A stretch of 64,000 nt of DNA from an uncultured bacterium (GCA_963813815.1 CAWFAD010000008.1:32001-96000); one strand, 5' to 3'. Shown: positions 7,098 through 24,047, numbered from the stretch's first letter. Made by a program: numbers and translations. Notes: a model not told the origin generated them from the sequence alone.

Positions 7098-7455
7098 GGG
7101 GGCGAATGGATTCGACGGGGATGGAAGAGGCAAGGGGAGCGTGCCGAGGCGCCATCAACCTCGTAAATCAGGTGGCACAACACAACTGCCGACAACCAGT
7201 TGGCACTGGCTGCCTAGTACATAGGCAACCCGTCCGCTCCGTCTGCGCAGGCAGGGGCGGAACCCGGGCGTCGATTACTGCCGGCTAGCGTGAATCTTTG
7301 CTCAGGAGATTCACGCGAAACAAACATGAGCTAGTCTCTCGGATCTTCTGCCTGTCGAGGCTCCCCGGGACGAAACAAACTCGATAGGACACGCACGTAG
7401 CAGCCCCTCGCGGAAACATCTTCGGACGCGGGTTCGATTCCCGCCGCCTCCACCA
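7098..7455 (+). ncRNA. ssrA: tmRNA
   Basis: 5' GGGGGCGAATGGATTCGAC; 3' GGTTCGATTCCCGCCGCCTCCACCA; tag ORF (A)ADNQLALAA-stop at 7188-7217. Confidence 0.97.
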
Positions 7456-7493
7456 TTATCAAGTTGGCACGCCACGCGCGGCGCCTCGGAAAT

Positions 7494-8672
7494 CTAGTGA
7501 AGTGTCCCCTCCAGCAGAAGATCGTCGACGTTTGTTGATTCGAGAAGTCTGAGCCCCTTCTCGCGGTCGACGACGAGCGGCATACAGCCGGGATAGCGCA
7601 GCTTGAATTGTTCCAACCCCCGAAGAGTTCTCGAAGCGCTCGACTTTGCCTCGATCGCGTATATCTTCCCTCTCAGCTCAACGACAAAGTCGACCTCGAA
7701 CTTCCCTTCTCGCCAGTAATGAACCCTTCCGCTGGAACGCAACAACGCCGCGCCGACGGCCGCCTCGAAAATCCGGCCATACCACTGAGGATTTGCGTCG
7801 ACCTCTTCGGGCGATCGGAAGGCATGTACCAGAGCGTTGTTCAGCGGCAAGAGTTTCGGGCTGGAAGCCCGCGTCCTCACTTCCGAGCCGCTGTATTTGT
7901 GAAGTGTGCGAATGAGGAATGCCCCCTGCAACAGATCCAGGTAGTGCTTGATCGTGTTCACATTCCCGGTTTCCTGAAGTTGGCCCAGGAGTTTCTGGAG
8001 TGACACCTCCTGGGCTGGATATGCCATCGCAAGCTCGAACATCTGGCGGAAGAGCGCCGGCTTCTGGACTGAACTGAGGCCCAGTATGTCTTTGATGAGC
8101 ACGGGTTCAATAATCGAGTCCCGCAGATACTTCTGCCATCTCGGAACGTCGTGACACAACGATGCGGCTGCCGGATATCCGCCGAACTTCAGGAACTCGT
8201 CGAGTCCCCATCCAAAAGCCTCCCTGCACTCGCCGAGATTCCAATGATCGGCAGTGATGACCTCGTATCTCCCGGCCAAGCTTTCACCGAGTCCCCGCTG
8301 AAGGGACAGGCTGGCTGATCCCAACAAGACGACTTTGAGTCTCTTGGACTCGCGGTCCTGATCGAACATGTGCTTGATAACCGAGCTCCAGTGGGGAATC
8401 TTCTGAACTTCATCGATCACGAGAAGGACGCCATCGCCCATTCGCCTGGCCCTTTCCCAATGCGCCGTGAGCCACTCCCTGTCGGGAGTAACGATCTCAT
8501 CCGCCGTGACCATAAGCGAGGGGCCCTCCCAACGTGCGATAATTTGCTGGAGCCCCGTGGTTTTACCGACTTGCCTCGGGCCGATGACCACCTGGATGAA
8601 ATTGAGCTGCTCGCGCAGCCGGGATGCCAATAGTCGAGTGAAATGCCGTTCAATTTCCTTCATAGTGGCCAT
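7494..8672 (-). CDS. AAA+ ATP-binding protein (AAA_14/DUF4143 type) with C-terminal PD-(D/E)xK-like motif
   Basis: Walker A GPRQVGKTT, Walker B IDEVQK, LAGR, GGYP, C-terminal EVDFV...AIEAK. Confidence 0.9.
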   Translation of the reverse strand: MATMKEIERHFTRLLASRLREQLNFIQVVIGPRQVGKTTGLQQIIARWEGPSLMVTADEIVTPDREWLTAHWERARRMGDGVLLVIDEVQKIPHWSSVIKHMFDQDRESKRLKVVLLGSASLSLQRGLGESLAGRYEVITADHWNLGECREAFGWGLDEFLKFGGYPAAASLCHDVPRWQKYLRDSIIEPVLIKDILGLSSVQKPALFRQMFELAMAYPAQEVSLQKLLGQLQETGNVNTIKHYLDLLQGAFLIRTLHKYSGSEVRTRASSPKLLPLNNALVHAFRSPEEVDANPQWYGRIFEAAVGAALLRSSGRVHYWREGKFEVDFVVELRGKIYAIEAKSSASRTLRGLEQFKLRYPGCMPLVVDREKGLRLLESTNVDDLLLEGTLH

Positions 8673-8819
8673 AGCATATTCATTTTTGGTAGATTTGTCT
8701 AGTATATTTAGGAGAATAATCTACTAAACTTTGAATTATGCCGCAACAAATTGTTATTATATGAGTTATATAATTAGCACTTCTACGGAAAGCGGGCAAA
8801 AACAGGGGTGTCCCTCCGC

Positions 8820-8841
8820 TTCTTTGCAACAGTGTCCACCA
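8820..8841 (+). repeat. att-like site copy 1
   Basis: TTCTTTGCAACAGTGTCCACCA. Confidence 0.75.
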
Positions 8842-8908
8842 TTTTCGAGCATAAGCTTCGATTTCCATGCAACAATGTACACTGTATATCGCATGGCTGG
8901 ACGACAAC

Positions 8909-9235
8909 TCACGAGACGAACCGGAAGGCCCCGAACCAGACGACAAACATGAATCCGAGCACGCAGAGAAATCCGAAGGCTATCAAAGCCGCGATTATCA
9001 CGGTGCGCCGGAACATGAGTCGCTTTGCTTCCATGTAGGTTTCCATTGCATCCTCCTTGTTGAGCGGTACAGGCGCATCTCCCGTCGTTTCCATCTTTGC
9101 GAACTCCTTGGCAAGGTCGGCGGTTTCGGGGTCACTCGCCAGGTACGATTCGACAAGCGCGCGCGTATCCGCGCTCGCCTCGTTGGCCACATAGATGGGT
9201 AGAAGATCGAGAATCACGTTTCGAGTGATCTTCAT
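8909..9235 (-). CDS. Putative membrane anti-sigma factor
   Basis: ITRNVILDLLPIY...ASADTRALVESYL N-terminus (zf-HC2-like but lacking Cys/His) plus a C-terminal TM; directly downstream of an ECF sigma. Confidence 0.75.
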   Translation of the reverse strand: MKITRNVILDLLPIYVANEASADTRALVESYLASDPETADLAKEFAKMETTGDAPVPLNKEDAMETYMEAKRLMFRRTVIIAALIAFGFLCVLGFMFVVWFGAFRFVS

Positions 9236-9236
9236 T

Positions 9237-9722
9237 TCAATACACCTTCCTTTCGATACAGGCCGCAAGGATCATCTTGCGAACGCGATGCACTTTCACT
9301 TTGGCTGATGCGAGTGTGATTTCCAAGACGCGGGCGATCTCCTCGTAAGGCATATCATGCCGCACGCGCAGGACAAAGGCCGCACGATCGATCTCCGGAA
9401 GCGTTCGCAGGAGCCTCTCAACTCTTACCAGCTCGAGCCGGGATTCGGCTCGATCTTCCGGTCCGGCCGCGGGATCCGGCAGCGTCTCATCGAGAGCGAT
9501 CTCGCGCCGGCTCTTGCGCCGCCGTTCAAGAAACGTGTTGCGAGCGATCGTCATGAGATATGCCTTGAGGGTTTCCGTGCGAATGGCGCTTCTCTTCACC
9601 CATGCGCGAACGAACGTTTCGGAAGTGATGTCCTCCGCTTCGGCGCGCTCGCCCGCAAGCGAGAAAGCGAAGCGGTAAACCTCCGGGGCGTAGGACTCGT
9701 ATAGTTCTTGAAAGCGCAGCAT
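9237..9722 (-). CDS. ECF RNA polymerase sigma factor
   Basis: GGAGG RBS; region 2 AEDITSETFVRAW...YLMTIARN; region 4 YEEIARVLEITLASAKVKVHR. Confidence 0.92.
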   Translation of the reverse strand: MLRFQELYESYAPEVYRFAFSLAGERAEAEDITSETFVRAWVKRSAIRTETLKAYLMTIARNTFLERRRKSRREIALDETLPDPAAGPEDRAESRLELVRVERLLRTLPEIDRAAFVLRVRHDMPYEEIARVLEITLASAKVKVHRVRKMILAACIERKVY

Positions 9723-9856
9723 TTTTCTCCTCCGGTGATAATAGACATTTGGAGATGGAAAGTTACAAACAAATGGATGTGACATGAGGAGGGATGCGCT
9801 CACTCCGGAGCCGAGCGACAGAGATGGGGTACGGTACGATAGCGTGCAGGTGGCGT

Positions 9857-9878
9857 TTCTTTGCGAGCGTGTCCACCA
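9857..9878 (+). repeat. att-like site copy 2
   Basis: TTCTTTGCGAGCGTGTCCACCA. Confidence 0.8.
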
Positions 9879-9904
9879 ATTCAAATCAGACGACAACGTC
9901 AGGC

Positions 9905-10756
9905 CTACGGCCGAATCCCGGCTGATTCTCGAAAGATCGTTCGCGATACCAGCTCGGTTGCACAAGCAGTCAGCGCGAATATCGCGAGAATGATCAGGTA
10001 GATCTGCAGGGCGCTCAGGTCTCCAAAATCCCACCAGTTGTCGCGCATAAGATTCACCGCCGATGTATTCAGCACGGCATGAAAAAACATCGCTATGAAC
10101 AAACTGCCATTGCTCCATCGCCAGAGGTGACCCATGATAAATGCGATGAGAATCGTAGATATCGGATATAGCACGACAAATTGCGACCAGCTCAATCCAT
10201 TGCGGAAATCCGCAAACCTGAATGCGGGGAAATGCCAACACGCCCAAACGAGGCCGACTATGATTGCCCTGGTCACTGATCTCAAGCGGTCCTGCAAACG
10301 AGATTGGAGAAAACCGCGCCAACCCATCTCCTCTCCCAACGGGCCTACTCCGAAAATAATCCCGCCCAGAAATGCATTCACCGGCACGAGTGCGATCATG
10401 GTAGCGGCGATTTTCCATAGGGCGATTTTGGCCGAAATCCCCAGAACGAGATAGAATACCAGTCCGATGGCGGGCAGCAGAAAGAAGGCAGCAATATAAA
10501 CACGCCAGTTTACCTTTACGAGAATCAAGCGCTTCAGCAGACCGAGGACAGCCGCGCGCCCGCCGGTTAGGCCAGTCATAATAAGCGCAGCTGCGGTCGG
10601 GCCAAAGCTGCCTGCCAGAAGAAATCCCGCAAATCTCCCGTCGTTGATACCGACCATTCCATTAATCGATGCTATGCCCATCAACCAGATCGCCCACGAA
10701 ATAGCGTAGGCAACAGCCACAAAAGCCAAGATGGACTTGATCCCTCGATCCTTCAT
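9905..10756 (-). CDS. CPBP/CAAX family intramembrane metalloprotease
   Basis: EEMGWRG, WACWH and FHAVLN motifs; multiple TM segments. Confidence 0.92.
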   Translation of the reverse strand: MKDRGIKSILAFVAVAYAISWAIWLMGIASINGMVGINDGRFAGFLLAGSFGPTAAALIMTGLTGGRAAVLGLLKRLILVKVNWRVYIAAFFLLPAIGLVFYLVLGISAKIALWKIAATMIALVPVNAFLGGIIFGVGPLGEEMGWRGFLQSRLQDRLRSVTRAIIVGLVWACWHFPAFRFADFRNGLSWSQFVVLYPISTILIAFIMGHLWRWSNGSLFIAMFFHAVLNTSAVNLMRDNWWDFGDLSALQIYLIILAIFALTACATELVSRTIFRESAGIRP

Positions 10757-10927
10757 TGAGGGCCTCCTCAATCAAGGCGGCATCCGGCCCGTAGGAGAGT
10801 ATCATCGCCGAGTGAAGTAAGGCATACCTGGACTGCGTGCATCAATACGGCACAGCGGCGCAGTTGTTTCCAGAAAAGAGCCCGCCTGGATTCGGTCTTG
10901 CATTCCAGCAGTACGTGCGGCGGTCAC

Positions 10928-11149
10928 TCAGTATCTGTCGAGTGCCCAGTTCAGCGCCTTCGCGACAGTCTTTCCCTTAACACCGATATGCCGGGCAATA
11001 GCCTCGTTACTGAGCGCCAACCGTTTCAAATGCAACGCCTTTCCCGCGATCTGCTGATATTTTGGAGGGATCTCGACCTCCAGAAGTTCCGCTTCGAATG
11101 TCATCTCCGCAAAGGTTCGAATTCTTTGCGGGCGTGTCCACCATTTCAA
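10928..11149 (-). CDS. Small HTH-containing ORF that starts across the att-like site
   Basis: LSNEAIARHIGVKGKTVAKAL HTH; N-terminus KWWTRPQRIRT is encoded by the repeat itself; no clear RBS. Confidence 0.5.
   Translation of the reverse strand: MKWWTRPQRIRTFAEMTFEAELLEVEIPPKYQQIAGKALHLKRLALSNEAIARHIGVKGKTVAKALNWALDRY
11107..11143 (+). repeat. att-like site copy 3 with T-loop-like hairpin
   Basis: CCGCAAAG-GTTCGAATT-CTTTGCGG-GCGTGTCCACCA. Confidence 0.8.
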
Positions 11150-11164
11150 CTCAATTGTGTCGGA

Positions 11165-11653
11165 TCATTCTTCGCAGACCGATTTCGAGCGTTTGCGACC
11201 CTTAATGGTCTTCAGCGCATCGGTGAGGACCTTCAGGACGAGCCTGTCTTTCTCCCTTGCCGCCGCTTCCTTGCTGGCAATGATCCGCTCCAGCTTCAGA
11301 ACGAGCACTTTTGTCCGACCGAGAGGCACCTTGATCGCATGTTTCCTTTCCTCGTCGAATTCGCCCAGTCCGTCCATAGTGAGAACGATATCGAAGAGCT
11401 CGATGCCATTGCCGGCGAACATTGGCCCATTCCTCGCCGTCGGAGGAACGTAAACGCCACGAACCTCTTTCAGGGCTTTTTCAAGGCCGGGATCCGGCAG
11501 CGTGCGAAACCACAGGTCGATACCCTGAGTCACAACGGGCGCTCCCTGAAGGGCGGCGGCGGAAAGCCCCACGATCATGAACTCGACTTTCTGGCGAACG
11601 AGCTCCTTCAGAAACTCCGCTTCCCGATCACCGAATATCAACGAATCGGCCAC
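11165..11653 (-). CDS. Nucleotidyltransferase-fold protein (putative TA toxin-like)
   Basis: MIVGLSAAALQG-x4-TQGID and K-x4-REKD motifs typical of DNA pol beta-like/AbiEii-like NTases; overlaps the upstream HTH gene. Confidence 0.7.
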   Translation of the reverse strand: MADSLIFGDREAEFLKELVRQKVEFMIVGLSAAALQGAPVVTQGIDLWFRTLPDPGLEKALKEVRGVYVPPTARNGPMFAGNGIELFDIVLTMDGLGEFDEERKHAIKVPLGRTKVLVLKLERIIASKEAAAREKDRLVLKVLTDALKTIKGRKRSKSVCEE

Positions 11654-11996
11654 GACGCAACGCCCTCCTCAAACGCTCGACAGGCTTCTCACTCAAGAGA
11701 AGCAGTGTATGCCTGATATTGTCTCGATCGATCCCTGGATGCAGCCTCGAGATGCGTTCCGATTCGGTGGCCAGGGATTTCATCCGTTCGGCCGGCGTAT
11801 CCGTTTCTTCGAGCAGGGCCGATACGGATATATGCAGGCGCTCCGCAATAAGGATCAGGGATAACGGGACGACGTAATCCTTGCGAGCCAGCGAATAGAA
11901 CGCATTTCGACTGACCCCCGCTTCACGCAGCATCTCTCCGATGTTCAGGCCCCTCCGGCGGCATTCGTATTCGACCTTATCCATGGAAAGCTTCAT
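11628..11996 (-). CDS. XRE-like HTH protein (putative antitoxin/regulator)
   Basis: RRRGLNIGEMLREAGVSRNAFYSL...IAERLHISVSALL; alternative start at 12002. Confidence 0.7.
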   Translation of the reverse strand: MKLSMDKVEYECRRRGLNIGEMLREAGVSRNAFYSLARKDYVVPLSLILIAERLHISVSALLEETDTPAERMKSLATESERISRLHPGIDRDNIRHTLLLLSEKPVERLRRALRRGRFVDIR

Positions 11997-12002
11997 ATAC
12001 AT

Positions 12003-12031
12003 AATGTACCACTATTTGGTACACTTGTCAA
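12003..12031 (-). promoter_or_regulatory. Sigma70 promoter with overlapping palindromic operator
   Basis: TTGACA-17 bp-TACATT on the minus strand; TGTACCA-N5-TGGTACA palindrome at 12005-12023. Confidence 0.75.
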
Positions 12032-12060
12032 CCGAGAATAGGCCCTTGTGTGACGTTATT

Positions 12061-12163
12061 CTAACCGTTGGGTCGATGCTCGACACGCCGGAGCCAGGCA
12101 GCAGCTTTAGTCGCCGTCTTGTCTGTGATTCCGAGCCTCCTGGCGATCGCCGAGTCGGGCATA
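12061..12163 (-). pseudogene. Truncated paralog of the 10928-11149 HTH ORF
   Basis: MPDSAIARRLGITDKTATKAAAW versus LSNEAIARHIGVKGKTVAKALNW. Confidence 0.65.
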
Positions 12164-12167
12164 GTCT

Positions 12168-12944
12168 CTATTCGCCAAAAAGAGTTTCCGGCCGCTGCTC
12201 CATCAATTCTCTCATTGCCGCCAAGAAACGCCCGGCATACGCACCGTCCAGCGGACGATGATCGAAGATCAGGGTGGCAGAAATGAATTGCCTGAAAACA
12301 CACTGCCCCGCCGCATTCCGAACAGCCTTCTCCTGCAGGGCCCCCAGGCACAGCACGGCGATCATCGGCATCGACATTGCCGGAACACCGTTGGTGACGC
12401 CGAAGCTGCCGAGATTCGTGATGACAAAATTGCCATAACGCTTTTGAAGAAAATCTATCGATCGTGACGGGAACCTCATGGCGAGCTTCCGAATAAAGGC
12501 CGGGATGCGCATAAAGCGTTTCAGATAGAGATAGAATTCCCCTTCATCCCGCTGAATTCTTTCGACCTGCCCTCTGCTTTCCTTGACAATCTCATCCAGC
12601 CTTTTCTTGTCGGGGTTGTGCAGTACGACGTACTCCACATGGTTCTCGCTGTCGACCGGAATATTGAAGACCATCTCTTTGGCATCGACGATTTTCTTCC
12701 CATCGAACGAGGCGTAGAGAAACGGAAAATGCAGCAAGGTCTTCGCGGATGCTTTCATGAAAAGATGGGTAAGCGATATTCTGAGGGAAGCCTCACGTTT
12801 GGCATTTGCTTCGCTCCGAAGCGCCAGAAGCCTGTCCATCTCGATATCGATCGCCATCGAAACCGCCGGAACGCGTCGATTCTTGTCGAATTTCATAATT
12901 TGAAATCTTCGAAAGAGCCGCTCTTTCTCTTCCCGTTGCACCAT
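12168..12944 (-). CDS. 2-oxoacid dehydrogenase E2-like acyltransferase, catalytic domain only
   Basis: ITNLGSFG and catalytic DHRPLDG motifs; no lipoyl domain. Confidence 0.85.
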   Translation of the reverse strand: MVQREEKERLFRRFQIMKFDKNRRVPAVSMAIDIEMDRLLALRSEANAKREASLRISLTHLFMKASAKTLLHFPFLYASFDGKKIVDAKEMVFNIPVDSENHVEYVVLHNPDKKRLDEIVKESRGQVERIQRDEGEFYLYLKRFMRIPAFIRKLAMRFPSRSIDFLQKRYGNFVITNLGSFGVTNGVPAMSMPMIAVLCLGALQEKAVRNAAGQCVFRQFISATLIFDHRPLDGAYAGRFLAAMRELMEQRPETLFGE

Positions 12945-13042
12945 ACGTGTTTCTCTCTTTCGTGGAGCGATACTGATGAAAGTCAATCTTATGGGCAATT
13001 CGATTCCGTGTCAAGGTGCCGGCGGGTTGTGCACGCGCCCCC

Positions 13043-14837
13043 CTATTTCCCTTCCTCCAACCGCTTCAGGGCGGCTTGGCCGTTCTTGTTCCCCGGATTG
13101 AGCTCGAGAGATTTTCGGTACCCTTCGATCGCGCGCTCCTTCTGCCCCACCTTCGCGAGGACCTCCCCGAGGCTGTCGTAGGCATTCCAGGAATTTGGAT
13201 AGAGCTCGACGGTCTTTTCGAACACGTAGACGGCGGCCGCGATCTCGTTCTCCTGAAGCAGCCGGTACCCGAGGTTGTTGAAGTCGGCTTCTTCGAACAC
13301 CGGGCCGTCTTTCCCGCGCCGCGCGAGGAGCTCCCGCAGCTTTGCATCGGCGGCCGGGATTCCTCCCTCGGCGAGGGACTTTCCGAGAGTGTCCGCGGCG
13401 GACCCGAGCCTTTGCTTGCGAACCGCCGTTTTCGCCCGTTCGATCTGCGGCTGCTCCCAGGGGAACATCGCCTCGACCTTTTCGCTTTCCTTCAGGATTT
13501 TCTCCGCTGCGGCGACGTCGCCGACGCCGAGATACGCCTGGGCCAGCATGGAGTAAGTGCTGGCGAATTGTGGGAAATCCTCGCGGCATGCGCGCAGAAG
13601 ACCGATCGCTTCGGCGTACTGCTTGCTCCCCAAGTATTGAGTGGCCCGTTGCATTGCTTCGTCGACGCCGAAGAAGGACGCGTCGCCTCTCTTCGCGCGC
13701 GCTCCATTGAGACCGGCGACCGCCGCCTCGACGCCCTTCTCACCCGCGTCGCGCACGTACTCTTCCACAAGGGATGTCCTCAGGTTCAACAGGCTGGCGG
13801 ATTCGTCCTGCGGGACGGGATTCCCTTTCTCCAGAAGCTGCAGCGCGAATTCCAGAACGCGGTCGGTCCCTGAGGCGATGTCGGCCGGCGTGTTCAGCAT
13901 GCGCAGATCGGGAGGCACGCCGACTCCTTCCCAGGAAACGCCGTTGTAATCGCTCATCACCTTGAAGGCCACCCACAGGGTCCAGCCATTCGGCATCCGA
14001 TCCGGGTATTGCGCCGAGAAGGCGCCCTCGGTGAGATCCCCCACGACGGTGACGTGGGGAAGCACGCGCATGGCCAGCACGAAGACATCGGCGCCGCTCG
14101 CGCTGAGGCGATGCGCGAGAAGGACGCTGGGCCGCGTGAACTGGACTGGACCGCCGGGCTCGACGTTGCGGTACTCCACCGGGGCCAGATCGTCGTGCTT
14201 GGGACCGTAGCGGGTCTGCGTTCGCATATAGTGTCGCTTGCGGTCGGCGAACCGATTCGCCACGAGCTCCGCCACGTTCCCCGTTCCACCCGGGTTGCCG
14301 CGCACGTCGACGATCATCCCCCGAGCGCCGGCGAGCTCCGCGATCGCCATGTCGATCGCCTGACTCGTCGGCCCGGGTCCCGCTTTGAAGTCGCCGAAAT
14401 GCATGTACCCGATCCCGTCCGAGAGCCAGCCGTAGGTGAAGCGACCCTTCAAGGTATCGGTGGCGCCGCCCTTCAAGTATTTCGACTTCACGAGATCCAG
14501 GGAGAAGTCGTCGGGCTCGCGGGCCTCCATCAATCCGCCGCAGTCGCGCCGCGTCCCGTCGGACAGGCAAACGTGCGCGTCGTTCAGGTTCCGCAGCATG
14601 GAGAGCAGTATGCCCCACAGCTCCTCGTCGGTGGTCGCCGGGGTGACCTGCGGGCGGTATACCTTGTACAGGGCATCCCAGTCGACGTGCTTGACACCGA
14701 ACTGGGCGTAGTTTCTATCGAGGCTCTTCCATACGTACTCGAAATTCAATACGGGATCGCGGGGATTTGCGCTCCCCTCGATTCTCGGCAACGGCGGCCG
14801 ACGCCCAAAGGCAAGCGGCGGCAAAGACAATCCACAT
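13043..14837 (-). CDS. S41 family peptidase with C-terminal TPRs (frameshift near 14775)
   Basis: DVRGNPGG, SASGAD and GVPPD motifs; TPR NAYDSLGE; signal peptide MWIVFAAACLWASAAVA lies in a different frame. Confidence 0.8.
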
Positions 14838-14932
14838 GACGTGCCATGATCGATAGCTCCTTTCCGTATGCTCCCCAATCTTGTCAACACTCGAATGATA
14901 CGAGAACGGAATGGAAGTTGTTGCCCGGAATA

Positions 14933-14967
14933 GCGAAGGTTCGAATTCCTCGCGAGCGTGTCCGCCA
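14933..14967 (+). repeat. att-like site copy 4 (outermost)
   Basis: GCGAAG-GTTCGAATT-CCTCGC-GAGCGTGTCCGCCA. Confidence 0.75.
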
Positions 14968-15103
14968 TTTCCTCTTGGCCGACGAATGCCCGCCGCCGGA
15001 AGCGTCCCGGAGATAACATTTTCGCTCTACCCCCGTACGGACGGTTTTGGTATCGTGACGTCGCACGGGACCGCACACGGGCTTGCGGGCAAGGAGGTCA
15101 TCG

Positions 15104-15517
15104 ATGAGGCGGATCGTCATTCTCGCCGCAGCGGCGCTGATCCTCTCCGCCGGCTGCACGAAGATAGACTATGTGGGCAAGGAGTTCCCGCCCACGGCCG
15201 ACGTGGATATCTTTTTCGCGCTCGACGACGTCGACCGCGAGTACGAGGTGATGGGTCACCTGACAGCCACCGCCAACGATATAGTGAGCGCGGAGAAGAT
15301 GCAGGAGGAGATACTGAAAAAGGCCCGCGAGAAGGGCGCCGACGCTGTCGTCATCCTCGGGCTCAACCGATTCGAGACTCCCACGCCGGCGACCTGGTCC
15401 GAGACGACGGAAATAGAAGCGACCAAGGCAGGAACGAAGACCACAACGACGGGGACTTCGTCATCCGGCACGAGCGAGCAAAAGGAGATACGCGCGACCT
15501 TTCTCAAGTACCGCTGA
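15104..15517 (+). CDS. Hypothetical lipoprotein (YbjQ/heavy-metal-binding-like fold possible)
   Basis: AAGGAGG RBS; lipobox SAGC; KAREKGADAVVI motif. Confidence 0.75.
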   Translation: MRRIVILAAAALILSAGCTKIDYVGKEFPPTADVDIFFALDDVDREYEVMGHLTATANDIVSAEKMQEEILKKAREKGADAVVILGLNRFETPTPATWSETTEIEATKAGTKTTTTGTSSSGTSEQKEIRATFLKYR

Positions 15518-17981: not shown

Positions 17982-19145
17982 ATGATTATCGCCAAACGCA
18001 AGCGGTTGGCGTTGATAACCGCGGCCGTATTCGTCGTCCTGATTGTGAGCGGCATCGTCGGGTTCCGCGTGGCCGTCAGGGCTCTGAAGGGTAAGGTCGT
18101 GGAGGCCCTGGGGCCGAACAGCGAGATCAGGGACATTCGGTTGGGCTGGTCCAGCGTGAACATCGAGGGGTTGAGGATCAAGGGACCGAGCTGGTGGCCT
18201 GATGCCGAAGTGTTGCAGGCGGAGCGCGTGGCCGTTGTCCCCAGCCTGCGCAGCCTTTTCTCCCGGCAATACCGGGTCCGCTCCATCACTATCGTCAAGC
18301 CCTATGTTTCGGCACTCCGAACCAAGGAAGGGAAATTGCTGATTCTCCCCGGTCTGCTGACAAAGGAGGCCGACGAAGGCCAAGCGGATACCCTCTCGCG
18401 CCCCGCCGCTGCCTACTCGACAGTATCCATCGGCCGTATCACTCTCAAGGATGGGATCGTGGAACTGTACGATGCCACGGTGACCCAGCCTCCGTTGAAG
18501 ATCCGGCTCGAGCAGATCAAGGCCACCATGCGGAACATGGCCGTACCGGGGCTCAAAGGGAAGAGCCGTTTCGAACTCGCGGGCGTCGTAAAGGGCGCCC
18601 AGCGGGACGGGCAGATCAAAATGGCGGGGTGGGTCGAGGTGGGCACCAGGAACTCCTCGGTGAAGACGGAGCTCCGGTCCGTGGACCTCGTGGTGCTCCA
18701 GCCCTATCTCATCAAGGCCGGCGAGAAGGGCGTTCAGAAGGGCACCTTCGACCTCGATCTGCAATCGGACGTGAGCAATAACCAGCTGAAAGCTCCCGGG
18801 AAGGCCACGATCTCGGATATGGAGCTCGTCCAGGCCGAGGGCGGCTTCGACACGTTCATGGGTCTTCCCCGTCGGGCCGTGTTGGCCTTCCTGTTGCGCA
18901 ATGAAAATAGGATCACGGTGGATTTTGTCCTGGAAGGGGACATCAATAGTCCCGAGTTCTCCCTCAACCAGACCTTCACCACGCGGTTGGCGTTCGCAAT
19001 GGCGAAGGTCCTTGGGCTCGACTTCAGCGGAATTGTGCAAGGCGTGGGTACGCTGGGACAAAAGGGCGGGGAAGCGGTGGGCCAGGCGGCGAAGAGCACG
19101 GGGGGCTGGCTGCAACGGCTTTTCGGGGGCAAGAAGAAGCCTTAG
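17982..19145 (+). CDS. DUF748/AsmA-like protein
   Basis: GGGAGG RBS; N-terminal anchor; beta-rich body; FVLEGDINSPEFS motif. Confidence 0.7.
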   Translation: MIIAKRKRLALITAAVFVVLIVSGIVGFRVAVRALKGKVVEALGPNSEIRDIRLGWSSVNIEGLRIKGPSWWPDAEVLQAERVAVVPSLRSLFSRQYRVRSITIVKPYVSALRTKEGKLLILPGLLTKEADEGQADTLSRPAAAYSTVSIGRITLKDGIVELYDATVTQPPLKIRLEQIKATMRNMAVPGLKGKSRFELAGVVKGAQRDGQIKMAGWVEVGTRNSSVKTELRSVDLVVLQPYLIKAGEKGVQKGTFDLDLQSDVSNNQLKAPGKATISDMELVQAEGGFDTFMGLPRRAVLAFLLRNENRITVDFVLEGDINSPEFSLNQTFTTRLAFAMAKVLGLDFSGIVQGVGTLGQKGGEAVGQAAKSTGGWLQRLFGGKKKP

Positions 19146-19161
19146 GCTATTGAGGCCTGCA

Positions 19162-19818
19162 ATGGCAAAGATTCTAATCCTGCTGATTGAAGACAACCGC
19201 TTTCTGCGGGAAGGCATCGCCGCCATGCTCAATAGTGAGAACGATATCGAAGTCGTCGCGCGAGCCGAAGACGGCGATGCGGTGCGTGAGCTGAAGAGCA
19301 TGAAAAAGCCCCCTGACATCATCCTCTTGGATCTTGGGCTGGAAAAGGAAAACAGCCTGAGACTGATGAACATGTTGCAGGAAGAAGCGCCGTCGGCGCG
19401 GATCATCGCCATGGATATATTCCCTGAGCAGATCGACATCGTCGAGTTCGTGAAATCCGGCGGCAGCGGCTTCATCCTCAAGAATGCCCCGTCGAAAGAT
19501 TACATTAAGACCATCAGGACCGTCGCGGCAGGTTCAAAGGTGCTTCCGCCGGCTTTGACCAATTCGCTTTTCACACAGATCATCGAATCCGCGCTCAAAA
19601 CAGGCAACGGCATCCCCAACAGCTCAATAGTTTTGACCAATCGTGAACGAGAGGTTATCGCCCTGATTTCCGAAGGCATGAGCAACAAAGAAATCGCCGA
19701 GCGGCTTCATGTCGCTACATATACCGTAAAGAGCCATATACACAATGTTCTGGAAAAGCTGTCGCTTCACACCCGGCTGCAAATAGCGGCCTTCGTCCGC
19801 AGGGAAGAATCCGAATGA
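19162..19818 (+). CDS. NarL/LuxR family response regulator
   Basis: Receiver LIEDN...PDIILLDL; HTH LTNREREVIALISEGMSNKEIA. Confidence 0.93.
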   Translation: MAKILILLIEDNRFLREGIAAMLNSENDIEVVARAEDGDAVRELKSMKKPPDIILLDLGLEKENSLRLMNMLQEEAPSARIIAMDIFPEQIDIVEFVKSGGSGFILKNAPSKDYIKTIRTVAAGSKVLPPALTNSLFTQIIESALKTGNGIPNSSIVLTNREREVIALISEGMSNKEIAERLHVATYTVKSHIHNVLEKLSLHTRLQIAAFVRREESE

Positions 19819-19856
19819 CCGAATTCGGATCTTGATTTCCCATAAAGCGATACATT

Positions 19857-19881
19857 GGACTAGCTCCGGAGGACTAGCTCC
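19857..19881. promoter_or_regulatory. Direct repeat, putative regulator binding site
   Basis: GGACTAGCTCC at 19857-19867 and 19871-19881, upstream of the next operon. Confidence 0.45.
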
Positions 19882-20036
19882 TTTTCCATCCCTTGGAGCG
19901 ATTCACTCGCTGAGGGTTCCCGAGTACACTTCCTTCAAAGAACACTACACCGGACAATATTCCGAAAGGAGCGTTGATGCATTGCTGCGGAGCGGGTAAC
20001 CATTCAGCTCGGTTTCACGCCACGAAAGGGGCAGAT

Positions 20037-20471
20037 ATGTTCAAGCGAACGTCATTACTAGTTGTCGTCATGATGTGTGCCCTTGCTCATGCCGGACTGG
20101 CGGCAGAACAGGACAATGTTCAGAAATACTTCAACGACGCTGCGTGCAAAGTGAAGGCGGCGACCGATCCGTCGCAGAAGCGCGAGATTCTCGAAAACAA
20201 GATCGAGGATATGTCCAAGGCGTTGGGCATGGTTCGGAACTCGCGACTCGTTTCGCAAGCCGATCGCGCGGGCCTTGATCGTCTCGGCGCCTCCCTTCAG
20301 GAGAAACGGGACGAGCTCGCGGGTACGAACGGCTACGCGCGCGTTGCCGATGATCAACTCAACGCGTTCTCCGAATACGTCGTGCAGGACATGGAGCAGG
20401 CAGACAGGACGATAACCCTCAGCGTCGTCACGGCGCTCTTGATCATAATCATCATAATCCTTGTCGCCTGA
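20037..20471 (+). CDS. Hypothetical exported helical protein with C-terminal TM anchor
   Basis: Signal peptide; hydrophobic C-terminus TALLIIIIIILVA. Confidence 0.7.
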   Translation: MFKRTSLLVVVMMCALAHAGLAAEQDNVQKYFNDAACKVKAATDPSQKREILENKIEDMSKALGMVRNSRLVSQADRAGLDRLGASLQEKRDELAGTNGYARVADDQLNAFSEYVVQDMEQADRTITLSVVTALLIIIIIILVA

Positions 20472-20505
20472 TCTCTCTCTTCCGCGAGGATTTCGTGTGT
20501 TTGGT

Positions 20506-21627
20506 ATGAATGGCTTGTCCAATGGATTTTCTGCGAGCGCCCCACAGGCACAATCGACGCCCGTGGCGCGTTTCGCCTGTGTGGCGCTCACTTTGTTTCT
20601 CTTTTCGTGCAGCTCCGTTCCTCCTGCCCGCCGCGCGGCTTCGCCGGCAGATTATGGCGGGCTCCCCCCGCGCTACTCGATCGTATGCATCATTCATGGC
20701 GATGGCAACTATCTCTATCATGATGCCCGTGGCGACGCGCTCAGCGCGGATGAGGTGACTCTCGCAAAAGCGATAACAGTCGCGGAACGCAACGCGCAGG
20801 CAGAGATGTTCATTTTTCATGAAAGACGCAGAAACAATCTCTTGCTGTTCTTTCCTCGTCGCGACGGAACGTTTTATTACTACCGGAACGGCTTCCTCCT
20901 CGCCGAGGAATCGTACTGGCGGGATCAGGGAGCATTGCGTTTCGATCCTGAAATGGAGCTTTATAACCGCTTCCGCGCGGAGGGCTCACCTGATCCGATG
21001 AGATTATTCCTGTATTTCGGTCATGAAATCCCCGAGCTCGGCGGAGCCGGTTACGATGCGTCGTACAAGAGCCGAACGTTCAGCGTGGACGACCTCGCGG
21101 ACGGATTGAAACGCGTCGCCCGCGATTCCACGAAGATCGATCTCGTCGTGCTTTCTGCATGTTTCAGCGGCACGCCGCGCACGCTGGCCGCGATTGCTCC
21201 CTACGCGCGATACGTCATCGCTTCTCCCGACAATCTTCACCTCTCATACTTCGATCTCCGCCCCTTGGAGCAATTGGATATCGGCCTGCGGGGGGAAGAC
21301 GTGTCCGAATTTGCCGATGCATTCGCTCGCCATGCGTTCGACAGGCTGACGGAGGATACACAGACAGCGGTCAGCGTTGTCGTATACGATGTGGATCGCG
21401 TTCGCGGATTCGTGCGCTCCGTGGACAGTGTCTACGATCATGCCATGGCCACATTGAAGGGGAAACCACCGGCATCCATCGAGCGCTGCGATTGCGCGGA
21501 TGATCCCGCATATATGATGCCGGGGCTCAATGAGGGAATAACTGTGCTCTATCGCGCGCCACGTTTTGGACGCTTGCAGCACAAACAAAGCCATTCGGGA
21601 TGGGAATGTTGGAGGCTTGTGAATTGA
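20506..21627 (+). CDS. Hypothetical lipoprotein, caspase/clostripain-like fold
   Basis: LFSC lipobox; YFGHE, VLSAC and YVIAS motifs resemble the clan CD His-Cys dyad context. Confidence 0.55.
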   Translation: MNGLSNGFSASAPQAQSTPVARFACVALTLFLFSCSSVPPARRAASPADYGGLPPRYSIVCIIHGDGNYLYHDARGDALSADEVTLAKAITVAERNAQAEMFIFHERRRNNLLLFFPRRDGTFYYYRNGFLLAEESYWRDQGALRFDPEMELYNRFRAEGSPDPMRLFLYFGHEIPELGGAGYDASYKSRTFSVDDLADGLKRVARDSTKIDLVVLSACFSGTPRTLAAIAPYARYVIASPDNLHLSYFDLRPLEQLDIGLRGEDVSEFADAFARHAFDRLTEDTQTAVSVVVYDVDRVRGFVRSVDSVYDHAMATLKGKPPASIERCDCADDPAYMMPGLNEGITVLYRAPRFGRLQHKQSHSGWECWRLVN

Positions 21628-21641
21628 TCGAGCGCGGAAGT

Positions 21642-22361
21642 ATGCGGAACGTGAAACTGACAACACACTATTATGTCCTTTCCCTGAGCGAGCACACCAG
21701 CAGGCTCTACGAAGCATTCCGGGACACGCTTATTGATATTCAAAACAAGGAGTTCCCGATTGAATCATCGGAGGTTCCGCGCGGGCCCATCGATACGGCG
21801 CCCAACAACGGTGGATTGCCGAAATTCATCCGCACGACGGACCAGCACTTTGACCACTATTTCGGACAGGATCCGCTTCGATTGGTTGTGGTCGGCGAAA
21901 GCAAATACCTGTCCATCTTCGGGTCCGTGACATCGCATCAAGACGCGTTGATTGGCGTGGTTGAAGGCGACCATACTGCAACTTCTCCGCACGATTTGGG
22001 CAAAATCGTATGGCCAATCGTCAAGGAGGTTATAGCGGGCACACGTAAAAACGCGATGCACGACTTGGAAGCGGCAGAAAACTCGCGGAACGTCGTTTCC
22101 GGAATCGATGCGGTGGCACATTCGGCGGGCTCGGGGAAAGGCGACACCTTGTATGTCGAGGAAGATTATCATATAAAGGGCGGCATTCGCGAAACGGATC
22201 ATTCGCTTATTCGGCCAAAGGATTTAGATATACAAGAGGCAATCGATGACGCCGTGGATGCCATTATCGCAAAGGTGCTGGAAGAGGGTGGAAATGTAAT
22301 ATTTCTGACAAGCGGTTCGCTGGCAAGGCTCCAGAGAATCGCTCTCGTTCTAGGTGGCTGA
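21642..22361 (+). CDS. Bacterial archaeo-eukaryotic release factor family 3 (baeRF3)-like protein
   Basis: YYVLSLSE..RLYE, TLYVEEDY and DAVDAII..VLEEGGNVIF...IALVL motifs. Confidence 0.7.
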   Translation: MRNVKLTTHYYVLSLSEHTSRLYEAFRDTLIDIQNKEFPIESSEVPRGPIDTAPNNGGLPKFIRTTDQHFDHYFGQDPLRLVVVGESKYLSIFGSVTSHQDALIGVVEGDHTATSPHDLGKIVWPIVKEVIAGTRKNAMHDLEAAENSRNVVSGIDAVAHSAGSGKGDTLYVEEDYHIKGGIRETDHSLIRPKDLDIQEAIDDAVDAIIAKVLEEGGNVIFLTSGSLARLQRIALVLGG

Positions 22362-22405
22362 TTGCCCATTCGCAACGAGGATATCGATAGGGAGGTGACG
22401 CAGAA

Positions 22406-22552
22406 ATGCTTTGGACTATAGGAATCATTCTATTAATTCTCTGGCTACTCGGGTTGATCACCGCGCACACGTTCGGCGGGGTCATTCACGCTCTCCTGGT
22501 CATCGCGCTCGTGGTGATTATCATCCGTGTCCTTCAAGGTCGGCGCCTGTAG
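22406..22552 (+). CDS. lmo0937-family small membrane protein (absent from ORF track)
   Basis: GGAGGT RBS; MLWTIGIILLILWLLGLITAHTFGGVIHALLVIALVVIIIRVLQGRRL. Confidence 0.9.
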   Translation: MLWTIGIILLILWLLGLITAHTFGGVIHALLVIALVVIIIRVLQGRRL

Positions 22553-22599
22553 CGCATCCGAGATACTCTTGGAGAGGAGATAATATCTTGTGCAAGAAC

Positions 22600-23139
22600 A
22601 TGAAGAAAGTGTCGCTGATGCTGGGGCTGGCCGCATTGATGGCCACCCAGGTGCACGCACAGAGCATAGGCATCGGCCCGCAGGTCGGCTATTTTCGAGC
22701 CAAGGATGCCGATGAGGGCAATTTTACGGGTGGAGCGGCCCTTCGGCTGAAAATGACTCCGTTTCTCGGCGTCGAGGCGTCCATCGGCTATCGTCAGGAA
22801 CAATATGCGGATGACCTCTTGACGGTTCGCAGCTGGCCGGTGATGATAACTGGTTTGATTTATCCGCTCCCCATAATCTACGGGGCCATGGGCTTCGGCT
22901 GGTACAACACAACGTTCGATTATGACCAGGTCAGCCTGCCGCTTCTCAAAGATGATACGGTGCAGAAAGTCGGCTGGCATTTCGGCGGCGGCATGGAACT
23001 GCCCATCGGAACAAAGATCAAGCTGACGACCGACATTCGCTATGTCTTCCTGGATTACGATTTTGAGGAAGTCCCGGGCAGCGGTGACATGAGCAGCAAT
23101 TTCTATGTTATCACCGCCGGAATACTATTCGCTTTATAA
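22600..23139 (+). CDS. Outer membrane beta-barrel protein
   Basis: Signal peptide ending VHA; alternating beta-strand pattern; terminal ITAGILFAL. Confidence 0.8.
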   Translation: MKKVSLMLGLAALMATQVHAQSIGIGPQVGYFRAKDADEGNFTGGAALRLKMTPFLGVEASIGYRQEQYADDLLTVRSWPVMITGLIYPLPIIYGAMGFGWYNTTFDYDQVSLPLLKDDTVQKVGWHFGGGMELPIGTKIKLTTDIRYVFLDYDFEEVPGSGDMSSNFYVITAGILFAL

Positions 23140-23300
23140 TATCTATTCAGGAGGACATGATATGAGGACTTCTCGGATCGCTCTTGCGACACATTCGACC
23201 TGGTCGCCGAGGTCGGTATCGGGATCAACGACGACTCGTTTACCTCTGTGGGCGCTGGCATCACGTATTACGTCCATTGATAGCGAGAGGAGATGATTCA

Positions 23301-23522
23301 ATGAGTGGAGCAAAGATCCTGGCACTCGTGTTGATCGTGGCCGGCATCATCGGTCTCATGTATGGCAAGTTCGGCTGCGCCAAGGAGACCCACAAAGCCG
23401 ACCTGGGCTCGATTCAGCTTTCGGTTAAGGAAGAGCGCTCCGTCAACATCCCCCTCTGGGCTGGCGTTGGGATGATAGCGGTCGGGGGTGTTCTTCTGAT
23501 TGTGCCGCGCAAGAAGAGCTAG
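23301..23522 (+). CDS. Small two-TM membrane protein
   Basis: GAGGAG RBS; KETHKADLGSIQLSVKE..VNIPLWAG pattern. Confidence 0.75.
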   Translation: MSGAKILALVLIVAGIIGLMYGKFGCAKETHKADLGSIQLSVKEERSVNIPLWAGVGMIAVGGVLLIVPRKKS

Positions 23523-23687
23523 TTCTTGCTGTTAGTGCCAAATGGGGGAACTCTCTTGCATATTAGGCGCGATCGTTGACGCGATTTCAATCAGCTGCTA
23601 CCACGCAGGGAACCAGCCGCAGTGGCCGACCCAGGACGCGTGGAGCCCGGTTCGGGCATCGCCCGTAACACGTAGGAGGTAAGACGA

Positions 23688-24047
23688 ATGAGATGGAACG
23701 CACTGCTCTTGGCTATCATCGCGGGTGTTTTCGCTTTCACGGTCCAATCTTGTGCCGTTGGATACCAAGGCCCGCCGCGTGCGGCAGCGCACGGTTACGT
23801 CGTGGTCCACCAGGAAAGGGAACTCGTTTTCGACTCGACGCTCGGATTGTATATCGTCACTGGCTACCCCAGCTTGTACTACTATGGGGGGTACTACTAC
23901 CGCGTGTACAGCGGAGGTCGTTTTGCGAGGTGCAGGACGATCAGCGGGGCCTGGAAATCGATCAGCCCTTCGAGATTGCCGCCGGGTCTCGCGAAGAAGT
24001 ACGGCGCGCACCCGGGCAAGCATCGCGGCAAGAGGCACAACAACTAA
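23688..24047 (+). CDS. Hypothetical lipoprotein with LPPGLAKK motif
   Basis: AGGAGGT RBS; VQSC lipobox; Tyr-rich core; LPPGLAKK. Confidence 0.75.
   Translation: MRWNALLLAIIAGVFAFTVQSCAVGYQGPPRAAAHGYVVVHQERELVFDSTLGLYIVTGYPSLYYYGGYYYRVYSGGRFARCRTISGAWKSISPSRLPPGLAKKYGAHPGKHRGKRHNN

Follow-up and report, generated by a model that had tools for sequence, protein, structure and literature searches.

Repeated sites behind the tmRNA gene of an uncultured bacterium as probable junction scars of elements that use a large serine recombinase

The gene for transfer-messenger RNA (tmRNA), ssrA, is followed in the genome of an uncultured bacterium by an array of small gene cassettes in which a short site is repeated. 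The DNA analysed, called the window below, is a stretch of 64,000 nucleotides (GCA_963813815.1 CAWFAD010000008.1:32001-96000) and belongs to an assembly of 2,531,083 bp in 16 contigs that is 90.8% complete (G000); 52 genomes of the same order, which are metagenome-assembled and possibly strain-mixed, served for comparison. Within the window a degenerate 22-mer matches exactly at positions 8820, 9857, 11122 and 14946, always on the plus strand, against 0.01 matches expected, and four or more matches were obtained in none of 100 shuffles. When up to two mismatches are allowed, the whole assembly holds these four places only, and the reversed control gives one match. The fourfold repeat described in an earlier note on this DNA is therefore confirmed, and it is tied to ssrA rather than scattered through the genome. 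The same note had all four copies ending in TCCACCA, as the tmRNA does; three of them do, but the fourth, at 14946, reads TCCGCCA.

The cassette genes (Table 1) all lie on the minus strand and point towards the tmRNA gene, with stop codons 38, 67, 26 and 21 nt after the preceding CCA, in agreement with the 20-70 bp estimated before. The guanine-plus-cytosine (G+C) content is 49-57% in 7456-13000, as against about 64% in the backbone. The predicted ATPase, extracytoplasmic function (ECF) sigma factor, CAAX protease, acyltransferase and S41 protease were recovered with Pfam, but an anti-sigma factor and a helix-turn-helix (HTH) nucleotidyltransferase (NTase), also named in the earlier note, matched no family; the open reading frames (ORFs) at 8909-9241, 11628-12002 and 11165-11653 have no match in Pfam or NCBIfam, and the NCBIfam matches of the acyltransferase are far under the cut-offs. 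No recombinase or transposase family was found among the 61 window ORFs scanned against Pfam, as the note had stated, and PF00589 has no match in the window and a single match in the genome, on contig C11.

Table 1. Features of the ssrA locus, with positions counted from the first nucleotide of the window.
Feature	Position	Strand	Basis and remarks
tmRNA gene (ssrA)	7098-7455	+	ARAGORN; tag ADNQLALAA; 3' end TCCACCA
Cassette 1	7456-8819	-	38-nt flank (TTATCAAGTTGGCAC...), ATPase gene, AT-rich upstream region
AAA_14/DUF4143 ATPase	7494-8672	-	Pfam
Site 1	8820-8841	+	Putative attR-type scar: inner 15 nt of element arm and TC-CACCA
Cassette 2	8842-9856	-	110-aa ORF and ECF sigma factor
110-aa ORF	8909-9241	-	No family match
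ECF sigma factor	9237-9722	-	Pfam
Site 2	9857-9878	+	Putative attR-type scar cut back to 22 bp
Cassette 3	9879-10927	-	CAAX protease gene
Rce1-like CAAX protease	9905-10756	-	Pfam
Orphan recombinase C-terminal tail ORF	10928-11149	-	WWTRPQRIRTFAEMTFEAELLEVEIPPKY...HTH...; tblastn with the G039 recombinase
Site 3	11109-11143	+	Complete element-side half-site GCAAAGGTTCGAA-15 nt-TC-CACCA; best-preserved putative attR of the window
Cassette 4a	11144-12170	-	162-aa ORF 11165-11653, 124-aa ORF 11628-12002, truncated recombinase tail
Second recombinase tail remnant, truncated	~12061-12170	-	tblastn match 12067-12162, E 2.6e-6
Cassette 4b	12168-12998	-	2-oxoacid_dh acyltransferase, catalytic domain only, low G+C; Pfam
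Peptidase_S41 and TPR gene, inside island	13043-14848	-	Pfam
Site 4	14933-14967	+	Complete element half-site, mutated core TCCGCCA
Chromosomal flank, end of inserted region	14968-15517	+	Small lipoprotein-like gene 15083-15517

The four sites differ in their extent. Those at 11122 and 14946 are similar over about 35-39 bp, with a leftward extension (GCRAAGGTTCGAATTC...) that includes the motif GGTTCGAA; at 8820 and 9857 the similarity is limited to 22 bp, and site 1 has neither the outer GGTTCGAA motif nor the protein tail described below. The 3' end of ssrA itself reads GGTTCGAT-10 nt-TC-CACCA and represents the bacterial attachment half-site. When tmRNA ends are compared across the genus, ssrA proves to be intact in G000 and to have no element arm behind it, so that the ssrA site looks unoccupied.

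The nature of the site becomes apparent in the relatives. With up to two mismatches the 22-mer is present in 36 of the 52 genomes, and exact or near-exact, clearly related copies, usually of the form TTCTTTGCGACAGTGTCCACCA, occur in about 15. These related copies are situated 1-5 kb downstream of the tmRNA gene and in the same orientation wherever the contig permits; sites of the same orientation stand behind the tmRNA gene, or behind a 3'-end fragment of it at the start of a contig, in G009, G010, G019, G022, G036, G047, G031 and G003. Conservation goes about 30 nt further left than the 22-mer, and the opposite strand codes for a conserved peptide (WWTLSQRIRTFAEIPIEAEILDTGAAPIYQQIAPKA..LGMS.SAIARRLGVTDKTVAKA.AW) that meets a stop after about 76 codons. 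The reverse complement of 20 related sites from 15 loci reads WWT(L/R)SQRIRTFAEIP..., and a conserved HTH tail comes next. One of the G039 sites has this frame open over 468 codons upstream and over 76 codons downstream, and the resulting protein matches Recombinase and Zn_ribbon_recom above the Pfam cut-offs, a partial Resolvase just under the cut-off and, in its tail, an HTH_23-like domain slightly under the cut-off; among relatives, the protein P0001 has Resolvase, Recombinase and zinc ribbon all above the cut-offs. The combination of Recombinase, zinc ribbon and the end of a Resolvase identifies the G039 protein as a large serine recombinase (LSR). When this protein, which lacks its first ~90 residues, was used as tblastn query, the window gave two tail matches. 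The better one (10943-11164, E 1.6e-17) covers residues 462-535 of the query, and the first codons of the orphan tail concerned are the reverse complement of site 3. The second match belongs to a truncated tail, which would mark a fifth boundary whose site has been deleted.

The intact attP of the relatives is a 48-bp palindrome, GGTTCGAA-15 nt-TC-15 nt-TTCGAACC (8+15+2+15+8 nt), which is contained in the LSR gene, some 76 codons ahead of its stop, and sites that keep both arms form an inverted repeat centred on CAGTGTCCACCA. The distance from the motif GGTTCGA(A/T) to the TC is 15 nt in each of the element arms and 10 nt in the tmRNA gene; a 5-nt shift of register between attP and attB is typical of large serine recombinases. 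Crossover would take place at the central TC, and the T-arm motif GGTTCGA would be the sequence recognised by the LSR. All four window sites lack the partner arm of attP and consist of one arm plus the core, with the full half-site kept at 11122 and 14946 and the inner 22 bp only at 8820 and 9857. Judged from their composition they are likely attR-type (far-end) scars, made of the tail-side arm and the core. The probability that the repeats are junction scars of small LSR-using integrative elements at the 3' end of ssrA is put at roughly 0.8. Part of the earlier interpretation is borne out by this result: the sites do represent points of recombination linked to the 3' end of ssrA, and the 22 bp combine an element arm with a short core shared with the tmRNA. 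A recombinase was also found with the homologous sites of relatives, where it spans the site. The proposed integron-like system with a novel site has to be abandoned, as the site is half of an LSR attP and codes for the C-terminal tail of the LSR.

Other origins of the repeat were considered. The sites end like the tmRNA and two of them include the T-arm-like GGTTCGAA, as would be expected if they were tmRNA 3' ends displaced by islands with tyrosine integrases that were later lost, and tandem islands of this kind are common at tmRNA genes according to the portions of PMC4383910 available. Such an origin is nevertheless highly improbable: the match to the tmRNA end is 7 nt long, the spacing from GGTTCGA to CCA on the acceptor side is 5 nt longer than in the tmRNA, the site is coding sequence in the frame of a serine recombinase, the attL junctions described below contradict it as well, and the one PF00589 match of the genome is on another contig. 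For the same reasons of spacing and match length, the GGTTCGAA-containing sites were rejected as displaced tmRNA 3' ends. An analogy to Xer/dif sites, as in the pdif modules of Acinetobacter, was also discarded, since the site does not have the 11-6-11 layout of dif. It is just as hard to credit that separately transcribed genes reuse the repeat as a working RNA or a regulatory module, for example as a tRNA-like hairpin, a terminator or a promoter. The sites do stand between a stop codon and the upstream region of the next gene, and the segment GCAAAGG-TTCGAAT-TCTTTGC could form a hairpin, with one compensatory change between 11122 and 14946; however, the left half of the hairpin is missing in two of the four sites, the hairpin is accounted for as part of a palindromic attP arm, conservation across phyla tracks the frame that encodes the LSR tail, and in orthologous cassettes the 22 bp are no better conserved than the adjoining DNA.

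The reading as LSR scars is further specified by the family to which the recombinase belongs. A search of a protein database (E <= 1e-10; 7,999 candidates scored) gave 462 LSR homologues, typically of about 570 residues and with 85% of the query covered. Among 16 homologues that were read, 13 continue after the WW with RR(R/G/W)E(S/L)NP..., which is what the antisense strand of a tmRNA 3' end encodes; one has the related ending WWSRRESN and one reads on differently, and a tail in place of the tmRNA antisense was seen in two, one without the WW core. Similarly, in G044 and G051 the frame of the LSR passes directly into the complementary strand of the tmRNA gene (...GSNSLRWWRRRESNPRPK...). Eighty LSR loci from Acidobacteriota, Actinomycetota, Gemmatimonadota, Gammaproteobacteria, Myxococcota and others were then inspected. 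A tmRNA 3' end predicted with ARAGORN lies at most 60 nt from the LSR's C-terminal end in 39 of the 80, and a tRNA 3' end lies as close to it in 17 (Ala 6, Glu 6, Met 4, Ser 1). No tmRNA or tRNA gene was found at the LSR end in 21 loci, several of which are contig ends or array-internal copies, and in three the LSR end was unaligned. A profile built from 11 tails and applied to the 80 loci placed a tail upstream of the LSR on the same strand in 21 of them; the elements delimited in this way measure about 2.8-11.5 kb, for instance 2.8 kb at L125 and 4.2 kb at L108, and their attL and attR match. The block common to both junctions can be as short as TCCA (L094), so the crossover lies inside this block. 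Members that target tRNA-Glu, tRNA-Ala, tRNA-Met or tRNA-Ser (L144, L147, L125 and others) keep a GGTTCGA-type outer motif, and their inner arm and core are altered to fit the acceptor strand of the target, e.g. TGGGGACGCCA for tRNA-Glu.

With attP located within it, the LSR gene is split by integration. Its body stays beside the tmRNA gene and reads on into the antisense strand of that gene, and the last ~76 codons, which encode the HTH tail, end up at the far end of the element together with one attP arm. For the array in G000, it is proposed that elements using an LSR of the Resolvase, Recombinase and zinc-ribbon type target the 3' end of ssrA (distant members would target tRNA genes), and that at least five insertions were stacked behind ssrA, the newest closest to the gene. 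All LSR bodies and body-side arms would subsequently have been lost, leaving cargo genes separated by the tail-side arm and the TCCACCA core. Site 4 would be the terminal and oldest attR, with the ancestral downstream flank of the tmRNA gene to its right. In G033 a degenerate copy of site 4 and the same lipoprotein flank are found about 150 nt behind the tmRNA gene, which indicates that the whole of 7456-14967 is inserted DNA. No clean empty ssrA site was found among the genomes compared; the closest is this same G033, which keeps an arm remnant besides the degenerate terminal site.

The earlier note had taken the cassettes to be minimal and non-autonomous. Arrays of relatives carry the LSR inside, so the missing integrase reflects decay or loss and not design. 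The LSR genes would have disappeared either by deletion or by precise excision of an LSR-bearing element that left neighbouring cassettes behind. Several observations point to deletion: remnants of the body-side arm, variable in length, survive in relatives; 6-12 nt of this arm are kept at the left end of the 11144 module; and deletions that cross a site are seen in G031 and at ~12160-12170 in G000. As the family's LSR is missing from the assembly, the array cannot move at present without the arrival of a related element.

Comparison between genomes shows that the cassettes behave as separate units. The ATPase cassette is 93% identical in G039 and 90% in G031, with the core at both ends and different neighbours: it is next to the tmRNA gene in G000, behind a tail and a site with the same 25-nt flank in G039, and behind the 11144-12170 module in G031. 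At its far end the homology among the three genomes stops at the CCA of the site, and the DNA beyond differs. The sigma factor cassette is 88.6% identical in G033, where an LSR tail, deleted in part, and a full-length site come after it; the CAAX cassette is 90% identical in G043 and stands directly behind the CCA of the tmRNA; and the 11144-12170 module is 96% identical in G031, joined there to the ATPase cassette instead, so that the order of cassettes conflicts between G000 and G031. Both occupied and empty states occur among the genomes compared. In G036 the upstream gene and the tmRNA gene are shared and the cassettes are different. Contigs from four public metagenome runs, some of which leave coverage gaps over many parts of the stretch, also show further cassette orders, joined at the sites or close to them, e.g. 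X1, with a site before the ATPase cassette, and X5, with 9878 joined to 12161 and 14870 joined to 8913. Site-specific accretion at ssrA is thus supported by the sequences, because the same cassettes occur in other orders with breakpoints at the TCCACCA core. The content downstream of ssrA accordingly varies by cassette between relatives and is not gained or lost as one block; none of the three outcomes that, according to the earlier note, would have refuted it was seen.

How the cassettes moved is a separate matter, which leaves the identity of the site undisputed. They might be non-autonomous units that can be mobilised in cis, an idea close to that of the earlier note: an LSR element at ssrA would co-excise with the downstream cassettes by using their attR scars, the LSR shuttle would deliver them to other genomes, and its precise exit would then regenerate the ssrA site. 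The ATPase cassette, with identical LSR-less ends and different neighbours in three genomes, the conflicting orders in G000 and G031, the rearranged joints in all four metagenome runs, and a tmRNA end in G000 that is unoccupied though cassettes follow all favour such traffic. Furthermore, 37 of the 54 matches to the LSR query in the order are tails alone, and the sections of McMurdie et al. (PMC3146451) at hand contain a like proposal for 15 integrase-less ssrA islands. On the other hand, neither a circular form nor an excision product was found in the metagenome contigs, where the sides of the joints measure 22-70 nt and from which circles are not demonstrable; two sites out of four are without the outer arm motif, which is expected of an LSR half-site; plain site-crossing deletions explain the G031 junction and the one at ~12160-12170 in G000; and the NTase-cassette flank with its 6-12 nt of body-side arm fits deletion of an LSR gene. 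Breakpoints in the core could also arise by repeat-mediated deletion and homologous exchange, without a recombinase, and strain mixing is possible in metagenome-assembled genomes. Both the co-excision and the shuttle are therefore held to be rather unlikely, and for some modules it is possible that minimal non-autonomous cassettes were moved in trans.

The scar reading preferred here has to be set against a number of observations that weigh on the other side. The family LSR body is absent from the G000 assembly, where tblastn gave the two tail matches only, so that the assignment rests on relatives; in the 52 genomes, moreover, no LSR is demonstrably intact, the query itself being without its first ~90 residues. 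Neither the tail nor the outer motif is present at 8820 and 9857, and the similarity of these two sites begins at the identical nucleotide, which is not expected under random decay. In the same way, a single LSR-less left junction of the ATPase cassette, shared by G000 and G039 with varied neighbours, is poorly explained by decay in place. Two near-complete genomes harbour site and tail arrays without a tmRNA or tRNA gene within several kb, namely G042 (L041 on contig C3, with the tmRNA gene on C4) and G010 (L037 at 618-621 kb, with the tmRNA gene elsewhere); possibly these are relocated arrays or secondary integration sites. Finally, some tmRNA genes of the same genus end ...CGCCTCCA and are followed, after ~23 nt (ATTTTTCTATyCATCG...), by a second copy of the T-arm and acceptor, CGTGTCCACCA (L162 in G033, L170 in G039, L171 in G034, partly L167 in G040, L080 at 1700-1770 and L048 at 1180-1260). 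In this altered copy the acceptor strand reads as in the 22-bp sites, the unit is also found as a flank of attR scars, and in three same-genus genomes it is after the altered copy that the LSR arm, or an arm-like or scar flank, is placed. A simple crossover at TC leaves the second tmRNA end unexplained; it may act as an attB that serves as decoy or landing pad, by which the true end is spared, or else be left over from some other element.

On contig C16 (L006, 453-1965, minus strand) G000 encodes a second large serine recombinase, which belongs to a different family. It is split into two overlapping frames of 310 and 257 aa, is frameshifted or decayed, and adjoins an ORF like a replication initiator. 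With two overlapping frames and no match to the family query, it is unlikely to be the enzyme that acts in trans on the sites. An open frame of 336 codons in G031 that ends in a tail was dismissed as a chance frame across an unrelated gene.

Among the cargo, the S41 protease gene stands apart by its host-like G+C content of 64-66%. Copies about 80% identical are present away from the tmRNA gene in five genomes of the same genus, mostly on other contigs; in G042 the copy is on the same contig as the tmRNA gene at a distance of ~250 kb, and the homology of the copies stops at the gene borders. From these sequences the protease seems to be a host gene captured into the island. A second block of low G+C content (51-58%) occupies 18900-24000 of the window and encodes a clostripain-like peptidase, a bacterial eRF1-like (baeRF family 3) protein and an outer-membrane beta-barrel protein; 24 nt of it (19229-19252) are 96% identical to 11373-11396 within the 162-aa ORF of the island.

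The array can be compared with several known systems. As in integrons, small modules, most of them single genes, accumulate one after another by site-specific insertion, all in the same orientation and at one chromosomal platform, but the array has no IntI, no attI and no attC hairpin sites, its repeat is half of an LSR attP, its cassettes have upstream regions of their own, and insertion takes place at the 3' end of an RNA gene. SCCmec composites and pseudo-SCC elements arise at rlmH, where the Ccr LSRs insert at the 3' end of a single-copy essential gene and where tandem composites, several direct repeats and recombinase-less members are known; in that case, unlike here, the target codes for a protein, attP lies outside the recombinase gene and there is no detachable tail. 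Elements of the SCC kind are mentioned in PMC10061031 and PMC3146451, and the former also notes clostridial islands at ssrA that carry a large serine recombinase, as well as tandem composites resembling SCC.

The closest likeness is to the tandem ssrA islands of Dehalococcoides (McMurdie et al. 2011; PMC3146451), which in the sections of that paper at hand are bounded by 20-bp direct repeats of the 3' end with an adjacent element motif. Their CcrB-like serine recombinase DsiB always overlaps attL, has no stop codon inside the island and, as the authors suggest, may exist as a whole enzyme only in the circular form or behind another island; 15 islands, about half, are without an integration module and were proposed to be either cis-mobilisable or fixed. 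Tandem stacking, direct repeats, an upstream element motif, an LSR that overlaps attL and integrase-less members are thus common to both systems, as far as DsiB can be compared by its published description. The differences lie in the repeat, which in Dehalococcoides measures 20 bp with the insertion placed in the T-loop, whereas here 7 bp are common and crossover would lie in TCCACCA; in the portion beyond attL, which is called divergent there and is a conserved HTH tail of ~76 residues here; and in size, since the Dehalococcoides islands are larger and carry a six-gene integration module, in contrast to cassettes of 1-2 kb with no module. An attP within the integrase gene is also known from the suicidal tyrosine integrases of SSV-type archaeal viruses, whose integrated copies are trapped and whose fragments accumulate; the consulted parts of PMC8371274 present self-splitting integrases as exclusive to archaea. 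In those of PMC4383910 (Islander), the integrases of Mx8 and SSV are said to extend across attP, and serine integrases are not known to target tRNA-type genes. SSV and the Mx8 IntP therefore resemble the present case in that integration at a tRNA-type gene partitions or alters an integrase gene that contains attP, but both are tyrosine recombinases, and the SSV split separates the catalytic domain, while here a serine recombinase loses a small C-terminal DNA-binding tail. In the main texts (supplements excluded) on serine integrases at tmRNA or tRNA genes and on suicidal integrases, no description of a conserved detachable tail was found.

The array behind ssrA is a decayed case of the known stacking of ssrA islands, in which every integrase gene has been lost. 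A cassette array without a recombinase is thereby explained without a new system, and island stacking of the Dehalococcoides type is extended to another little-studied bacterial lineage. The recombinase belongs to a large multi-phylum family of serine integrases that target tmRNA and tRNA genes and carry attP within their own gene; it runs counter to two published statements, that serine integrases are not known to target tRNA-type genes (PMC4383910) and that self-splitting is confined to archaea (PMC8371274). With short, well-defined sites and a natural universal target, these LSRs may serve genome engineering. If the cassettes are still exchanged, which is doubtful, the tmRNA gene of a bacterial order would be an integron-like accretion platform run by a serine recombinase with a split gene.

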